A stretch of 64,000 nucleotides of DNA, taken from positions 127,289 through 191,288 of the IMG/VR virus record IMGVR_UViG_3300025319_000005; one strand, given 5' to 3'. The notes beneath the pieces were generated by a model. The model had not been told where the DNA came from. It worked only from the letters and a program-made list of their open reading frames with translations, and made no database searches. Source of the DNA: a virus. Of the stretch, positions 45,567 through 58,110 are shown in pieces. The stretch's first letter is position 1; each line of letters opens with the position of its first letter. The translations under genes were made by a program, and so were the position numbers.

Positions 45567-45645
45567 TACCTTCAATAGGATTCGAACCTACATTTTCAGC
45601 TCCGTTACACTTATTGAGTCCGTAGCTCAATGTGGCTATAAAGGC
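45567..45645 (-). tRNA. Atypical tRNA-Arg(ACG) lacking a D arm
   Basis: Acceptor GCCTTTA/TGAAGGT; ATTGAG-CTACGGA-CTCAAT; GTAGG-TTCGAAT-CCTAT. Confidence 0.65.
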
Positions 45646-45646
45646 A

Positions 45647-46333
45647 TTATATTAATTCATATCGTTTTGCCCACTTTCTCACCGCAACATCACTAACTCC
45701 AAATTTTCTACCAAGTGCACAATATGAATTATTTTCTATCATTTCTTTTAATTCTTCTTTAGAGGGTCTGTTTTTTACTTTTCTAAAATTTAATCTAGGT
45801 ACATATTTTCTCGTTGTTTTTTTATTTGTTTTATTTTTTTTTGCATTTTTTCTGTCTACGCCAATTTTACCACGGCAATGAGTTTCTAATGTGAAATTGC
45901 AGTTTGGACATAAAAATCTTAAGTTTTCTAATCTATTATCATTATTTATTCCGTTTTCGTGGTCAATAATTAAACTAATTTTTTTACCTCTCCATATTTC
46001 TCCTTGTCCACATTCTTTACATTCATATTCTATCATGTTATTATCTCGTATTCTTTTTTTTAAACAAGCCCTTGCAACAGAACTGTTTTCACAAAAAATT
46101 TCTTCATCACTTTTCCTTAATAATCTGTCTTCATTAAACATTTTTTTAGCAAAATCACTACGGTTTAAAAAATGAGAAGTATCTATTGACCATTTATTTA
46201 AATTTGTTTTAAGTATTTTATAAGATGAAGAAGAATCGCTTCTTCCAGATTTTACTATAACATCTCTAAATGTGATGCTTTCAGATACTAATTTTTGTAA
46301 TTCTTCTTTTGTATATTCTTTATGTTCTTTCAT
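45647..46333 (-). CDS. HNH homing endonuclease
   Basis: CKECG..DHENGINNDNRLENLRFLCPNC. Confidence 0.88.
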   Translation of the reverse strand: MKEHKEYTKEELQKLVSESITFRDVIVKSGRSDSSSSYKILKTNLNKWSIDTSHFLNRSDFAKKMFNEDRLLRKSDEEIFCENSSVARACLKKRIRDNNMIEYECKECGQGEIWRGKKISLIIDHENGINNDNRLENLRFLCPNCNFTLETHCRGKIGVDRKNAKKNKTNKKTTRKYVPRLNFRKVKNRPSKEELKEMIENNSYCALGRKFGVSDVAVRKWAKRYELI

Positions 46334-46390
46334 AATTCTAACTTATTTTAATGTAAATAGGTTAGAATTTTTTAATAAAGTAAATAGTTG

Positions 46391-46466
46391 AGGATAAGAA
46401 GAGAATTAAACTCCTGTTAAATATGTTTTGCAGACATATCCCGATTTCAACATTGGGTACTTATCC
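46391..46466 (-). tRNA. tRNA-Cys(GCA)
   Basis: GGATAAG/CTTATCC; CT-GCA-AA; U discriminator. Confidence 0.85.
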
Positions 46467-46480
46467 TTGTAAAAATTAAA

Positions 46481-46750
46481 AAAGTAAAATCCTAAGTATA
46501 GCCGCGATTTTGTTCTATCTCATCATTTATCTGAAGGTATTGCTACCAACTGGAGACTTTAAACGTCTACCACGCACCTACCCGACTATCAACAACGTAA
46601 AGGTTCCCCGTCTACAGTCTGTTTGGCTTGCATCCTATGTTGCGGAAGTACATACGCTATTTGTTATAGCTTCTTCCTCCTTTTAAAAGATGTCGCGAAC
46701 TTCCTCTCGATTTTAAGAATCGAGCGATGAGTCCTTCAGGATTTTACTTT
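46481..46750 (-). ncRNA. rnpB: RNase P RNA (compact)
   Basis: P1 AAAGTAAAATCCT/AGGATTTTACTTT; CR-I-like GAGAGGAAGTTCGCG; CR-V-like AGAACAAAATCGCGGCTATA. Confidence 0.85.
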
Positions 46751-46755
46751 TCTTG

Positions 46756-46827
46756 AGGCTCCACTGACAATCGATGTCAGGACTCAAATTTACAAGATTC
46801 GTGTTTTGCCACTTAAACTACGGAGCC
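46756..46827 (-). tRNA. tRNA-Thr(TGT)
   Basis: Cloverleaf with CT-TGT-AA. Confidence 0.9.
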
Positions 46828-46843
46828 ATTATTTGTTCTTATG

Positions 46844-46917
46844 TGGAATCTACCGGCATTGAACCGGTCTCTCAGGCGTGCAAGGCAAGTGTTCTAAGCC
46901 AAATGAACTAAGACCCC
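46844..46917 (-). tRNA. tRNA-Ala(TGC)
   Basis: GGGGTCT/AGATTCC with G3:U70; CT-TGC-AC. Confidence 0.88.
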
Positions 46918-46955
46918 AATTTAATTTGTTCAAAGTACAAATTATTAAAAACTTT

Positions 46956-47031
46956 TGGCGAGTATGACCGGTCCTGACCCGGCGACCTCCTCATAGACAG
47001 TGAGGCATTCTTCCAACTGAACTACACACTC
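46956..47031 (-). tRNA. tRNA-Asp(GTC)
   Basis: Cloverleaf with encoded GCCA end. Confidence 0.9.
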
Positions 47032-47043
47032 ATTATTTTTTAA

Positions 47044-47352
47044 AAAAGTAAGACGCCATTTCGCTGATAGCGTTTTTTGTGTTCTGTTTAATGCGCCAAA
47101 GAACATCTGATTATGTTCAGCATTTAGCGTTCATGCTTGGTTATTATAACATACTAACATTCCTAATATTGTCTGATTACCTATTTTGAGTTTGCATAGT
47201 AGGTTGATTTTTATTTCCAGGGTAAAAATCAACAAACAAACCTAACGTCTGATAAACTTTATTTTTCATCCGGTAAACGTTTTGTACATTGTTTAGTTCA
47301 TTAGGCTAAAACAACACGTCTTTTTCACGGACAACATTAGTAACTTACTTTT
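47044..47352 (-). ncRNA. Unassigned structured RNA of about 300 nt
   Basis: Closing stem AAAAGTAAG/CTTACTTTT; long-range CTAATGTTGTC/GACAATATTAG; several hairpins; no ORF of 60 aa or more. Confidence 0.6.
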
Positions 47353-47356
47353 CTTG

Positions 47357-47430
47357 TAGTGCATCTGAGAATTGAACTCAGTACTTCCACGTTATCGGCG
47401 TGGCACTCTGGACCGATGAGTTAATGCACT
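47357..47430 (-). tRNA. tRNA-Ile(GAT)
   Basis: Cloverleaf with CC-GAT-AA loop. Confidence 0.9.
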
Positions 47431-47444
47431 GTTTTTATTTAAAG

Positions 47445-47517
47445 TCTAGGTGGCCTGCTCCGACCAGGCGGTCTCCAGTTCCCAAAACTGGCGGATTTCC
47501 AACTTTCCCACACCTAG
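47445..47517 (-). tRNA. tRNA-Pro(TGG)
   Basis: CTAGGTG/CACCTAG; TT-TGG-GA. Confidence 0.9.
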
Positions 47518-47555
47518 AAATTTTGTTTATCTTTCCAAACTGTCTTTTAATAAGA

Positions 47556-47618
47556 GTTCAAGCTCGGTTATCCACCGATTCGAAGGACTGCATTAGCCTT
47601 CTCTGCAGACACTTGAAC
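47556..47618 (-). ncRNA. Small three-stem RNA with a possible pseudoknot
   Basis: GTTCAAG/CTTGAAC, CTGCA/TGCAG, TCGGT/ACCGA stems; GAAGG/CCTTC. Confidence 0.5.
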
Positions 47619-47620
47619 AT

Positions 47621-47696
47621 TGGAGCGAAAAACCAGGTTCAAACTGGCGACCCCCAGAGTGGAAATCTGGCGCTCTATCAACTGAGCTATTTTCGC
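47621..47696 (-). tRNA. tRNA-Gly(TCC)
   Basis: Cloverleaf with TCCA end. Confidence 0.92.
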
Positions 47697-47785
47697 TTAT
47701 GTATATAATTCTCTCAGACCATATTACCAAGATTTACTTTGGACTCACCGTATTTTAAAAGTGAGCAGAATTGTATTTAATTAAA

Positions 47786-48733
47786 TTATTCTAATAATAA
47801 TTCATCAATTGTTAAAATTGAATTTAAATTATCTATTGTTTTTTTAAATATCATTTTAACATTAATGTTGTTTTGTTCTAATACTAAACTCATTTTTGTT
47901 TTATCTATTATTGAATAATATCCTTTAGTTTCTATGTATAAGTTAAAATTTGGCAAATAAAAATCTGGCACATACGTTTTTTCAACACCTTCTTTAATAT
48001 ATTGAATATATATTTTTCTAATCCACAATATTTTATTGTCATTTAACCATTGCGACATTTTTAATTCATATTTTCCTCTTAAAGAATATTCTTCACCAAT
48101 AATATTTTTTTGTTTATAAAATTTCACATGTTTAAAATTGTTACTTATTTCATTTTCTTCTAACATCTTGGAGTGAGATTTGCTAATTTTCGATTTTTGT
48201 TCAGAAGAAAGTGGCTTTCCTAATTGGTGATGTATTCTCTTACCAGTAGCATACATTTCTTTTTGTTGCTCAGATGCTTTATTTACCCTATTATCAGTTT
48301 CCTTTGTAAGTCCTCTTGACCATCCCATTTTTGATTTAGTCTCTGCATTACTGTATTTTTTATTTTTATATTCAACTCCATCCGGTGTATGCATTTGAAA
48401 TATATGACCACATATACCAAGTTTGTGAAATATTAATTCGCAATGAGGACATTTATATTTATCTACATCAACTTTCCAAGATTCATCTACTGTTATTTGT
48501 TTTTTATTAACTGTATTACATTTATTATAATGCCTTTCAAAATTAGAAACAGAAATATTTTTATTACATTTATCACAACATTTTGTGTTTTTAGGTTTTC
48601 CAAGTAAAGAAATACTTAAATTTTTTAATCTTTCTTTTAACTTTGGATTAGATTCACAATTTACTATATGAGCACCAAATTGTTGTGGGATCTCAAACTC
48701 AAAAGACTCTTTGCAATGCGGACAAGTTTTCAT
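47786..48733 (-). CDS. Homing endonuclease-like protein (Zn fingers, NUMOD3-like, PD-(D/E)XK)
   Basis: GWSRGLTKETD; YVPDFYLP..IETKG. Confidence 0.8.
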   Translation of the reverse strand: MKTCPHCKESFEFEIPQQFGAHIVNCESNPKLKERLKNLSISLLGKPKNTKCCDKCNKNISVSNFERHYNKCNTVNKKQITVDESWKVDVDKYKCPHCELIFHKLGICGHIFQMHTPDGVEYKNKKYSNAETKSKMGWSRGLTKETDNRVNKASEQQKEMYATGKRIHHQLGKPLSSEQKSKISKSHSKMLEENEISNNFKHVKFYKQKNIIGEEYSLRGKYELKMSQWLNDNKILWIRKIYIQYIKEGVEKTYVPDFYLPNFNLYIETKGYYSIIDKTKMSLVLEQNNINVKMIFKKTIDNLNSILTIDELLLE

Positions 48734-48802
48734 ACTTTTTTATTATAAATAGTATAAAAAATTGCAGGTTAGAAAATTGTTAGCACGTTATTGTTTTTTG
48801 AG

Positions 48803-48885
48803 TGGGAGTTGATGGAGACGAGCCACCCGAGTTTTAAAACAACCGATTTACAGTCGGTCCCGCTACCCCTACGGAATAAACTCCC
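48803..48885 (-). tRNA. tRNA-Tyr(GTA)
   Basis: CT-GTA-AA with long variable arm. Confidence 0.88.
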
Positions 48886-48897
48886 ATTTTAATGTTG

Positions 48898-48969
48898 CAC
48901 AGACGGTTATAATCGAAATAACTACGTGTAGTTTTTGGAGAACTCACCGACACCAAGCCTGTCGTCTGT
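48898..48969 (-). tRNA. tRNA-Trp(CCA)
   Basis: ACAGACG/CGTCTGT; CT-CCA-AA; G discriminator. Confidence 0.8.
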
Positions 48970-49008
48970 ATTTTATCTATTTTTTAAGCTGTAAGATAAT
49001 TAGCTAAG

Positions 49009-49080
49009 TAGCGAAAACTGGAATCGAACCAATGTAGACACAGCTTATGAGACTGGTGGGAAACCAACATCCTTTTCGCA
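49009..49080 (-). tRNA. tRNA-Met(CAT), initiator-like
   Basis: CT-CAT-AA; 1:72 mismatch. Confidence 0.75.
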
Positions 49081-49093
49081 ATATATTTTTTTG

Positions 49094-49166
49094 TAGCCCC
49101 TGCCGGTCCTGACCCGACGACTTCATTCATGTAAAAAATGCACTCTACCAACTGAGTTAAGGGGCT
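49094..49166 (-). tRNA. tRNA-Val(TAC)
   Basis: Cloverleaf with TT-TAC-AT. Confidence 0.9.
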
Positions 49167-49171
49167 ATTAG

Positions 49172-49245
49172 TAGCATATATCAGAATCAAACTGATGACC
49201 TTCCTCATATGAAAAGGACGCTCTAATCAACTGAGCTAATATGCT
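49172..49245 (-). tRNA. tRNA with CAT anticodon (Met elongator or Ile2)
   Basis: Cloverleaf with TT-CAT-AT. Confidence 0.88.
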
Positions 49246-49255
49246 ATTTAAAAAG

Positions 49256-49327
49256 AGCGGGTGATGAGGATTAAACTCACGGCCTCATCCTTGGCAAGGA
49301 TGCGCTCTATCGCTGAGCTACACCCGC
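49256..49327 (-). tRNA. tRNA-Gly(GCC)
   Basis: GCGGGTG/CACCCGC; TT-GCC-AA. Confidence 0.92.
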
Positions 49328-49400: not shown

Positions 49401-49433
49401 AACAAAAAACCCGAACCTTTTTTAAGTCCGGGT
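49401..49433 (-). terminator. Attenuator terminator of tRNA operon 1
   Basis: ACCCGGAC..GTTCGGGT followed by TTTTTGTT. Confidence 0.85.
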
Positions 49434-49472
49434 GTGTTATGTTGTTTCCCTTTTAAGTTTTTATATCTTACT

Positions 49473-49601
49473 TCATGAAACAAAATGTTTTAACACACCC
49501 ATATTATCGCGGCTATAATCGCCAGGGGTAATACACGCATACCCGACTGTCGGCATGACTGCCCAAATCGTTGTAATTGTTGTATGTGTTAAATTTTTCA
49601 T
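49473..49601 (-). CDS. Leader peptide of tRNA operon 1 (42 aa)
   Basis: MKNLTHTTITTIWAVMPTVGYACITPGDYSRDNMGVLKHFVS*; contains antiterminator strand GGGTGTGTTA. Confidence 0.8.
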   Translation of the reverse strand: MKNLTHTTITTIWAVMPTVGYACITPGDYSRDNMGVLKHFVS

Positions 49602-55144: not shown

Positions 55145-55171
55145 TTGAAATTATTATTTTTTAATATAAAG

Positions 55172-55244
55172 TGCTTCCAGTTGGACTTGAACCAACGACC
55201 CGAAAATTAAGAATTTCCTACTCTACCATCTGAGCTATGAAAGC
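55172..55244 (-). tRNA. tRNA-Lys(CTT)
   Basis: Cloverleaf with TT-CTT-AA. Confidence 0.9.
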
Positions 55245-55332
55245 AATAATTTATAATGTATTATAGATATATGTTGAGTAAAATCCACAGAATGTTCTAT
55301 TTTATGGATTGTGCTCAACAAATATGTAATTG

Positions 55333-55406
55333 TGTGTCCGACAAGATTTGAACTTGTGACCTCCGCATTAAAAGTGCGGTATTCTAACCAGCTGAATTAC
55401 GAACAC
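55333..55406 (-). tRNA. tRNA-Lys(TTT)
   Basis: Cloverleaf with CT-TTT-AA. Confidence 0.92.
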
Positions 55407-55410
55407 ATAG

Positions 55411-55497
55411 TGTACCCAGAAAGATTCGAACTTTCAACGGCCTTTCGGCTCCCCACAGGGTAAAAACCTGTTGCTCTACCAATTGAGCCATGGGTAC
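55411..55497 (-). tRNA. tRNA with TTT anticodon and long variable arm
   Basis: ACAGG-TTTTTAC-CCTGT; variable arm with GCC-GAAA-GGC hairpin. Confidence 0.85.
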
Positions 55498-55501
55498 AAA
55501 T

Positions 55502-55538
55502 AAAAAAGCCTGAATCTACACAGAGACTCAGGCTTTTT
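55502..55538 (-). terminator. Attenuator terminator upstream of the Lys tRNAs
   Basis: AAGCCTGAGTCT..AGATTCAGGCTTTTTT. Confidence 0.85.
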
Positions 55539-55553
55539 GGACTTATAAAAAAG

Positions 55554-55619
55554 TCAATGAGCTATCGTCCCCGGAGACCAGGGTTTCTTAGATTTTTTTA
55601 TTTTGATTATTGTTAACAT
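55554..55619 (-). CDS. Lys-rich leader peptide (21 aa)
   Basis: MLTIIKIKKSKKPWSPGTIAH*. Confidence 0.7.
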   Translation of the reverse strand: MLTIIKIKKSKKPWSPGTIAH

Positions 55620-55730
55620 TTTGTTTATTTTTTTAAATTAAAAAGAGCCCACACTCAACTGGTGGCTAATTTTTATGAACGAGTATTACCCAAGTTCTGT
55701 CATCCACTATGACAAATTTCTATTGTTATT

Positions 55731-56083: not shown

Positions 56084-56099
56084 TTTATTTATGTTTTTG

Positions 56100-56173
56100 G
56101 GTGCTATATCGGCTACGACCCGATTACCTTCTGTACCACAAACAGACACTCTACCAATTGAGCTAATAACACC
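56100..56173 (-). tRNA. tRNA-His(GTG)
   Basis: G-1:C73; TT-GTG-GT. Confidence 0.9.
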
Positions 56174-56186
56174 ATATTAAATTTGT

Positions 56187-56957
56187 TTAAAATACAAATT
56201 TTAAGACTTTAATATTATTTACTTTTTCACTATATCCAAAATTTCTAATTTCATCATGTATTTCTATGTGACAATTTGCACAAACCATAATACATTTATC
56301 AACTTCTACTTTTAATCTTTCAAAACCATAAGATTTGCCACCAATAGTAAAATCTTTTTCACTTGGATTTGTATGATGAAATTGTAAAACTGATGTTGAT
56401 TTATTATATCCACAACATTCACATTTCCATCCTTTATATTCAATTAATCTAATTTTACTTCTTTTTCTCCAATCTATAACAGCCTGACTTTTGGTTTTAG
56501 TTTTTTGTCTTTTTTTATTTGTTTTAATCAAATCATCAGAAATGTAATTTCTAATTGTTGTCCTATCTACCTTAAAATAAGCGGCTGTTTTTCTTAAAGA
56601 CTTACTTTCTATATAAAAATTAACAACTTCTATTTCAATAAGTTCTTTTTTCTTAAATGTACCACTTGATTTATTTAATCCATACAAATTACATATTTTA
56701 ATTAACTTATCTTCTCCAATGTCCAAAATTGACCTTATTTCGTCATAGCTTTTCAATTCTCTTCTGTAAGCAATTATTTTGTTTATAACTTCATCAGTTA
56801 TTCCAATTAAAAAACTGTTTCTTACTCCGCCAAGTCCAACATTATTTATGTGATAAGACACAGTGCTTTTTGAACACTTTAATTGTTCAACTATTTCTTT
56901 TATAGTTGAGCCTTTTTCTCTTAAAGAGATAATTTTATTTTTCAAACCTTTATCCAT
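56187..56957 (-). CDS. HNH homing endonuclease with HTH
   Basis: CECCGY..LQFHH..KCIMVCANCH; paralog of 12009-12704. Confidence 0.85.
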   Translation of the reverse strand: MDKGLKNKIISLREKGSTIKEIVEQLKCSKSTVSYHINNVGLGGVRNSFLIGITDEVINKIIAYRRELKSYDEIRSILDIGEDKLIKICNLYGLNKSSGTFKKKELIEIEVVNFYIESKSLRKTAAYFKVDRTTIRNYISDDLIKTNKKRQKTKTKSQAVIDWRKRSKIRLIEYKGWKCECCGYNKSTSVLQFHHTNPSEKDFTIGGKSYGFERLKVEVDKCIMVCANCHIEIHDEIRNFGYSEKVNNIKVLKFVF

Positions 56958-57028
56958 ATTATTAACTTTATTTGTTAATAAATATGGGATAAAATTCAAA
57001 AAAACAAAATTTATTTCAAAGAACGTTG

Positions 57029-57100
57029 CGGACCCGCCTGGACTTGAACCAGAAAACGCAGATTAACAATCTGAAGTGATACCAATTTCACCACAGGTCC
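57029..57100 (-). tRNA. tRNA-Asn(GTT)
   Basis: TT-GTT-AA; G discriminator. Confidence 0.85.
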
Positions 57101-57443: not shown

Positions 57444-57532
57444 TGGCGGAAAACGGGCAAATCGAATACCATTCAAATTAACGAACCTCTCGCTTAGCAG
57501 GCGGAGACAACTCCCTGGTTGTTTCGTTTTCC
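57444..57532 (-). tRNA. tRNA-Ser(GCT)
   Basis: CT-GCT-AA, long variable arm, GCCA end. Confidence 0.85.
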
Positions 57533-57559: not shown

Positions 57560-57645
57560 CAGAGGCTAAGAGAGTTCAACTCTTACAACCTTTTCAAGTC
57601 CTAGCTATTTTCAAGATAGTGTACCTCCGTCAACTGGGAGCCTCT
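57560..57645 (-). tRNA. tRNA-Ser(TGA)
   Basis: CT-TGA-AA, long variable arm, G73. Confidence 0.8.
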
Positions 57646-57724
57646 ATGTTTGCCTATTAACTCTATCACTCACCTAAACGGTGGATTACAGAACTTCGGC
57701 AGGATTTTATTCCTGTTCAGTTAG

Positions 57725-57801
57725 TGGAGATTGCCAGAATTGAACTGGCGTTAATTTCACGGTTCTTCAAACCGCAGCTAGACCGTCTCAGCTAAATCTC
57801 C
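57725..57801 (-). tRNA. tRNA-Phe(GAA)
   Basis: GGAGATT/AATCTCC; TT-GAA-GA. Confidence 0.88.
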
Positions 57802-57822: not shown

Positions 57823-57858
57823 AAAACAAAAAACCCGAACTCTTTTGTAAGTCCGGGT
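57823..57858 (-). terminator. Attenuator terminator of tRNA operon 2
   Basis: ACCCGGAC..GTTCGGGT followed by TTTTTGTTTT; homologous to 49401-49433. Confidence 0.85.
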
Positions 57859-57886
57859 GTGTTTATGTTGTTTTAATTTTAATCTT

Positions 57887-57976
57887 TTACGATTCAAAAG
57901 GACAATACACACCCGCTCGGCTTTTATTACTAAAACTCGATTTGTTAAAATGCTTATGTGTATTATTTGTTGTCAT
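57887..57976 (-). CDS. Leader peptide of tRNA operon 2 (29 aa)
   Basis: MTTNNTHKHFNKSSFSNKSRAGVYCPFES*; contains antiterminator strand CGGGTGTGT. Confidence 0.8.
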   Translation of the reverse strand: MTTNNTHKHFNKSSFSNKSRAGVYCPFES

Positions 57977-57994
57977 TTTGTATTCTTAATATTC

Positions 57995-58110
57995 TTTAAA
58001 TAGTATAAAAAATTATTTTTCTAAAAATTCTTATTATCAATTATAACGCAAAGATATAATTAAAGTTTCAAAAAAGCAAATTTATTTTGATTTATTTTTT
58101 ATTTCATTAA
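57995..58110 (-). promoter_or_regulatory. Promoter block of tRNA operon 2
   Basis: TATCTTTG at 58049-58056 and CTATTTA; duplicate of 49625-49740. Confidence 0.75.

Follow-up and report, generated by a model that had tools for sequence, protein, structure and literature searches.

The window, by which we mean the whole 64,000-nt stretch of DNA analysed, is part of G000, a linear virus record of 212,632 bp with 29% G+C that is about 81% complete. The record contains a match to the T4-like Gp23 capsid protein; at its ~81% completeness no match to a phage RNA polymerase beta subunit was found. The tRNA genes of G000 lie in two blocks on the minus strand, operon 1 and operon 2, and the leaders and switch elements described below are on the same strand. 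No cultured relative was found: in blastn searches of named phage records, operon 2 gave four uncultured records with matches in its downstream parts and not in the leader, and operon 1 gave tRNA matches only. Strict tRNA searches made no call for Leu, Glu, Gln or Arg(TCT) in G000. The complete 518,809-bp phage G001 keeps these tRNAs in a separate gated block, and such a block may lie within the missing part of G000.

In operon 2, both ARAGORN and Rfam call tRNA-Phe(GAA) at 57724..57801, tRNA-Asn(GTT) at 57028..57100, tRNA-His(GTG) at 56099..56172 behind an HNH endonuclease gene (56187-56999), and two tRNA-Lys(TTT) plus one tRNA-Lys(CTT) at 55171..55497; the Lys(TTT) gene at 55410-55497 has a long variable arm, unusual for Lys. 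tRNA-Ser(GCT) at 57444..57532 is called by relaxed ARAGORN only and folds as a cloverleaf. A probable tRNA-Ser(TGA) at 57560..57645 was drawn by hand: it has no Rfam match at E<=1 and no ARAGORN call even at -ps80, and its minimum free energy fold has the acceptor, variable and T arms and lacks the anticodon arm. Ser(TGA) is called in the Ser-containing operons of two relatives (L079 and G003). Between tRNA-Phe and Ser(TGA) lies a structured 78-nt spacer (57646-57723, minus strand; z -2.64) without an Rfam match, and further unexplained structured-looking spacers were seen near 47520-47620, 47040-47350 and 55630-55720.

Operon 1 carries Gly(GCC), Met, Val, Met/Ile2(CAT), Trp, Tyr, Gly(TCC), Pro, Ile, Asp, Ala, Thr and Cys tRNAs (46390..49327), preceded by a 42-aa leader ORF (49473..49601) in which 25 of 29 core codons match the tRNAs of the operon. 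Its promoter is at 49714-49682, its segment 2 (see below) at 49500-49493, and its segment 3 with the terminator at 49404..49437. An RNase P class A-like RNA lies within the operon at 46483-46744 on the minus strand (Rfam E 6.6e-10, 39 bits vs a gathering score of 100); it would be gated together with tRNAs that it could process. An atypical tRNA at 45567-45645 (minus strand; Rfam 34.6 bits) has an ACG loop by eye and is perhaps Arg(ACG), while relaxed ARAGORN reads it as His; a single CGC codon is present in the operon-1 leader. Endonuclease genes, of the HNH or another type, are inserted in both operons (45647-46333, 47786-48733 and the HNH gene of operon 2).

Leader, promoter and predicted RNA switch of operon 2

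Both tRNA blocks begin at a TTTG-N20/21-TATCTTTG site found by pattern scan, which is the consensus of the Bacteroidota housekeeping promoter in the accessible portion of PMC6847099. The predicted promoter of operon 2, with TTTG, a 20-nt spacer and TATCTTTG, is at 58049..58080. The leader start downstream of it has an A at -3 in an A-rich context and no Shine-Dalgarno sequence, features described for Bacteroidota starts in the same portion of that paper. Because promoter consensus and leader start context both fit this phylum, the host of G000 is probably a Bacteroidota bacterium.

The leader ORF of operon 2 encodes 29 aa, MTTNNTHKHFNKSSFSNKSRAGVYCPFES, from the ATG at 57976 to the TAA at 57887 (57887..57976), and equally long homologues exist in G001 and L079. 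Within it the sensor run HKHFNKSSFSNKS occupies 57920..57958. Its 13 consecutive H/K/F/N/S codons and its use of both Ser codon boxes (TCG, AGT, AGT and AGC) were confirmed as originally predicted. This run is the longest of the eight H/K/F/N/S runs of at least 10 residues among the 425,260 six-frame codons of G000, the other seven being 10-12 residues long, and base shuffles of the leader never reached a 13-codon run (0/200,000).

Folding predicts three mutually exclusive helices, 1:2, 2:3 and 3:4, with energies of -13.6, -17.6 and -14.8 kcal/mol. Segment 1, the predicted protector strand pairing with segment 2, is at 57956..57964. Segment 2, the antiterminator strand CGGGTGTGT at 57907..57915, falls within the ORF on the Gly-Val codons, and in the leaders of both operons this Gly-Val is followed by six codons and the stop. 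It is complementary to segment 3 (57854..57862), which is common to the antiterminator and the terminator; the pairing positions first proposed for the antiterminator are thus correct. The 3:4 helix is an intrinsic terminator hairpin with a T6 run at 57828..57858, located between the promoter, only ~190 nt upstream, and the tRNA genes. A ribosome-free transcript is predicted to fold into 1:2 plus 3:4 (z -2.98).

A ribosome was then moved along the leader in a folding model with an assumed footprint of -15/+13 and a transcript ending after segment 3. The predicted probability of 2:3 is 0.98-0.99 with A-site codons 2-17 of the operon-2 leader and at most 0.05 at codons 18-27; for operon 1 it is 1.0 at codons 2-30 and about 0 at 32-41. 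In both operons the modelled boundary of permissive stalls falls close to where the matched codons end. For a ribosome at the stop codon of the operon-2 leader the two models disagree, P(2:3) being 0.99 in the transcript-cut model and 0 in the cross-leader model. Since 2:3 is stronger than 1:2, and segment 2 is freed at equilibrium in the transcript-cut model once the ribosome reaches the stop codon, shut-off would require timing, or kinetic trapping by prior formation of 1:2. The stall and helix logic is otherwise that of the pheL scheme, as far as PMC3082878 was available. Transcription-translation coupling in Bacteroidota found no confirmation in the accessible parts of the literature searched.

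The earlier proposal that the run matches the downstream tRNAs holds for Phe, Ser(TGA) (by the hand reading), Ser(GCT), Asn and His. It overlooked that the three Lys genes stand behind a leader and terminator of their own (55619-55502). This nested Lys-rich ORF, MLTIIKIKKSKKPWSPGTIAH, was called by the leader rule described below at 55554..55619, and its terminator (-16.9 kcal/mol) is at 55502..55535 with a weak antiterminator (p 0.075). ORF and terminator lie directly before the Lys genes and are conserved in G001 and L079, where the homologous leaders have K5 runs. As there is no TAnnTTTG site between the first gate and the Lys gate, the two probably act in series, and this arrangement would account for the presence of Lys codons in the first leader. 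Nesting was also seen in G001, for Gln, and in LR745206.1, for Ser, Gln and Gly/Ala; some of these inner gates carry their own promoter-like sites.

Mosaic structure of operon 2

The promoter and terminator of operon 2 had been described as akin to those of operon 1, and the alignment bears this out, with 90% identity over a promoter block of 111 nt (E 3.6e-36) and 85% over a terminator block of 78 nt; these blocks occur in only two copies in the 212,632-bp record. The 120 nt upstream of the operon-2 leader are 74% identical to its own operon 1 vs 52-55% to the relatives, and the terminator is 89% identical to operon 1 vs 63-77% to the relatives. The leader shows the opposite relationship: it shares 80-82% identity with the leaders that two relatives have before operon 2, and 47% with the leader of operon 1. 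A derivation of the operon-2 leader from the operon-1 leader was rejected on these identities. By this comparison operon 2 is a mosaic, in which a recent copy of an operon-1-type promoter and terminator likely surrounds an older leader.

This changes how the locus can be read. It was thought to be the operon-1 switch with reprogrammed codons, and the combination of a conserved switch with divergent codons was taken as strong evidence of selection. A matched-codon attenuator is strongly supported, mostly by comparison across genomes; the reprogramming is not, given the identities above. As the likeness within the genome probably reflects the recent promoter and terminator copy, it is weaker evidence of selection than claimed. 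We conclude that the leader and switch of operon 2 are a real feature under selection.

Codon match in related leaders

Pattern scans and tRNA searches across whole records recovered the same leader-switch-tRNA design in G001, in LR745206.1, LR756501.1 and LR756500.1, in a number of contigs, and within the tRNA arrays of two Bacteroidia MAGs (G005 and G006). For example, four Gln tRNAs follow a Q7 run, Glu and Tyr follow YESYYEE, Pro and Asp follow PQPQDQDP, five Leu tRNAs follow an LL-rich leader, and Trp and Cys follow WCCW in a contig of 60% G+C. With duplicates included, tRNAs were found at most 1.5 kb downstream of 14 of the 25 viral pattern loci, and among the matches listed of 13 of 115 metagenome and 4 of 120 genome loci. 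In one pattern scan the true homologues were 2 of 23 loci, and L194/L270 appear to be chance matches. No leader was found before the L211, L389 and L225-Gly clusters or before the ordinary Thr-Tyr-Gly-Thr-Trp clusters of L396 and L397, and L395 has an ORF without codon match. One leader type (L144:6370, L145 and L051) seemingly starts at an in-frame TTG upstream of the first ATG. Two CTA-anticodon, amber suppressor-like tRNAs were seen in a 735-kb phage (L388, LR756501.1 690585-690737). In the two MAGs the attenuator-led arrays (L392 and L393) lie amid ordinary bacterial genes, with an RtcB-like piece at L392 and a TROVE/Ro60 gene at L393, both linked to RNA repair.

The statistics were computed on 31 of roughly 400 sources, the window and 30 loci with tRNAs, after duplicates and loci without a downstream array had been dropped. 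Leaders were called by a fixed rule that is blind to codon content, with thresholds tuned after examples had been seen, and the core was defined as the leader minus its first 4 and last 9 residues. The rule yielded 43 leaders and none for 11 tRNA clusters or singletons, two of which have matching leaders by eye. In all 43 leaders 474 of 739 core codons match the tRNAs of their own operon, compared to a null of 27.6% (0/20,000 permutations). When one leader per similarity cluster was kept and 7 short contigs were dropped, 22 representatives from phages and the two Bacteroidia MAGs remained, with 246 of 366 codons matched (67% vs 27% null), a level that 0/100,000 permutations reached. Permutation within genomes (29 leaders) gave 306/446 vs 29%, again with 0/100,000, and the true pairing of leaders and operons ranks 1/5040 in LR745206.1 and 1/120 in G001. 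The match also follows changes in the tRNA set: in G001 and L079 the core contains ACT and the operon a Thr(GGT) gene, while in the window the codon is AGT and an anticodon arm of Thr(GGT) is absent, and Trp is added to both leader and tRNA set in LR745206.1 and LR756501.1. Read from these sequences, the codon match of the leaders tracks tRNA gain and loss. In leaders with a permissive window, 398 of 554 positions at which a modelled stall is permissive carry matched codons, vs 106 of 344 other positions.

A rival reading is that AT-rich DNA yields K/N/F/S codons by chance and that the terminator merely ends an upstream transcript. The seven other runs in G000 fit this idea, as does the lack of tRNAs behind most pattern loci (102/115 metagenome and 116/120 genome loci among the matches listed). 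The shuffles and permutations disfavour it, codon sets richer in GC (Pro, Ala, Gly, Arg, Trp, Gln) show an equally good match at other loci, and the terminator stands close behind its own promoter. Chance composition was rejected and we give this explanation a negligible probability.

The antiterminators are less uniform than the codons. Our first test, with a 15-nt probe, gave p<=0.05 in only 10 of the 22 representatives, and the probe was lengthened to the whole arm after that result. With the longer probe the 16 pattern-found leaders all pass, as expected by construction, and 12 of the 20 others pass, mostly with different sequences. A significant antiterminator is missing in the remaining 8 of 20, including all three Lys leaders (p 0.075, 0.45 and 0.51). 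Several leaders without a clear antiterminator would be compatible with a leaky or protein-antiterminated terminator that sets a fixed or timed tRNA level, the translated leader sensing only a general slowdown of translation, for instance from antibiotics or ribosome shortage. Equilibrium folding, which prefers 2:3 whenever segment 2 is free, points the same way, and inducible tRNA L-arrays respond to general translation stress according to the available text of PMC8421152. A general sensor needs no operon-specific codons, yet these match far above permutation within single genomes, and we regard such a mechanism as improbable.

The codon changes bear on whether a ribosome reads the leader at all. 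Among operon-2-type leaders, single-base codon differences are synonymous in 4 cases and non-synonymous in 17, and on visual inspection the substitutions in the core do not leave the amino-acid set of the respective operon. The few synonymous changes, together with the codon-level match, would suit a ribosome-free RNA switch that binds tRNAs via codon-anticodon pairs like a multi-specifier T-box. Against this, aligned leader homologues keep the reading frame, third-position changes dominate in the operon-1 homologues (31/56), and each of the 43 called leaders runs from an ATG in an open frame to a stop that lies 18-40 nt ahead of the hairpin, an ORF that the rule itself demanded. A T-box was rejected, as Rfam gave no T-box match at E<=1 and no other meaningful leader, the best being the L10 leader over the Lys gate at E 0.09, below its cut-off. 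We consider ribosome-free tRNA binding very improbable, and translation of the leader is retained as the preferred reading.

Proposed attenuation of tRNA genes and known systems

Based on the sequence comparisons and folding models, we consider it highly probable that a ribosome-mediated transcription attenuator with a codon-matched leader controls the Phe, Ser, Asn and His tRNA genes, and the Lys genes via the second gate. We infer that the host RNA polymerase would start near 58044 and be followed by a host ribosome. With ample charged tRNA, the ribosome would cover segment 2, or pass it and let 1:2 form, and 3:4 would terminate transcription ~25 nt before tRNA-Phe. A stall in codons 7-17 would block 1:2 and leave segment 2 free, 2:3 would form, and the tRNAs would be transcribed. 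A shortage of Lys would open both gates in series because of the Lys codons in the first leader. The output would be the sensed molecule, which would place tRNA supply under negative feedback; this would help most when infection leaves host tRNAs cleaved or scarce.

If attenuation is real, its trigger could instead be amino-acid starvation of the host. A stalled ribosome cannot distinguish an uncharged from a missing tRNA (PMC3082878, accessible part), and the Thr, Arg and Ser isoacceptor tables, three of the four, gave no significant association. A similar switch core with an Arg-codon leader also stands before argF/argG/argH-like genes in a Balneolia MAG (L263:2564-2700); this one example hints at a host origin of the attenuator. 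An extra tRNA would supply no amino acid, and a match exists at the anticodon level, both for Ile, where ATA codons accompany Ile(TAT) and ATY codons accompany Ile(GAT) (7/2 vs 0/5, p 0.02), and overall, as the anticodons of the operon itself can read 60 of 81 codons, against 45.9 predicted from the codon usage of G000 (z 3.4). We hold starvation to be a possible but rather unlikely trigger.

In a broader form, huge Bacteroidota phages and some Bacteroidia arrays would carry a modular tRNA thermostat of up to seven codon-programmed attenuators, some of them serial, each reading the supply of its own anticodons and replacing exactly the tRNAs depleted by host defence nucleases or infection; the case for and against this model is evenly balanced. 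If it is true, the leaders would be a readable record of the tRNA shortages met by each phage. The presence of tRNA genes in phages has lacked a clear explanation for more than 50 years (PMC10264068, in the part available), and a switch for tRNA genes that responds to slow decoding would argue for on-demand rescue and not constant codon compensation. Such a switch would bring tRNA genes and phages within the reach of classical attenuation, unite multi-input with serial gate logic in a single RNA, and might provide portable sensors of tRNA supply for Bacteroidota.

We found no description of an attenuator of tRNA genes in the accessible parts of the literature, mainly open-licence papers, and the term 'attenuat' is absent from the main text, as available, of the huge-phage paper PMC7162821. 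The Anabaena trn operon, one of the inducible tRNA L-arrays (PMC8421152), is alike in being a supernumerary tRNA operon with homing endonucleases that is turned on when translation is impaired. It differs in that codon-matched sensing is not described, 'attenuat' and 'leader' being absent from the available main text. T-box riboswitches likewise key the choice between terminator and antiterminator to the state of tRNA, and differ by binding the tRNA directly without a ribosome. The Bacteroid-trp RNA motif RF01692, presumably an attenuator positioned before trp genes, has no match in the operon-1 or operon-2 leader at E<=1. This motif is listed as a Bacteroidetes candidate leader RNA in the accessible part of PMC2864571.

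In the attenuators of amino-acid biosynthesis and synthetase genes (trp, his, phe, thr, ilv, pheST) the genes under control either synthesize the sensed amino acid or attach it, whereas the downstream genes of operon 2 besides the tRNAs are an S24-like ORF and the HNH gene. The E. coli pheST operon with its leader pheM is a case in which a translation component is attenuated by the supply of charged cognate tRNA; unlike the phage operon, it controls a synthetase, for one amino acid, and is chromosomal. Multivalent attenuator leaders are known from thrL and from ilvL of ilvGMEDA, and the phage leader would work alike. With the classical leader-peptide attenuators such as E. coli pheL (PMC3082878, as far as available) the phage leaders share a short ORF with regulatory codons, the predicted 1:2, 2:3 and 3:4 helices and a U-tailed terminator, and would share read-through upon stalling. 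They differ from these in that they front tRNA genes and not biosynthetic enzymes, that one leader covers 5 to 11 amino acids, that several gates per genome, some in series, share out the tRNA set, and that the output would be the sensed molecule itself.
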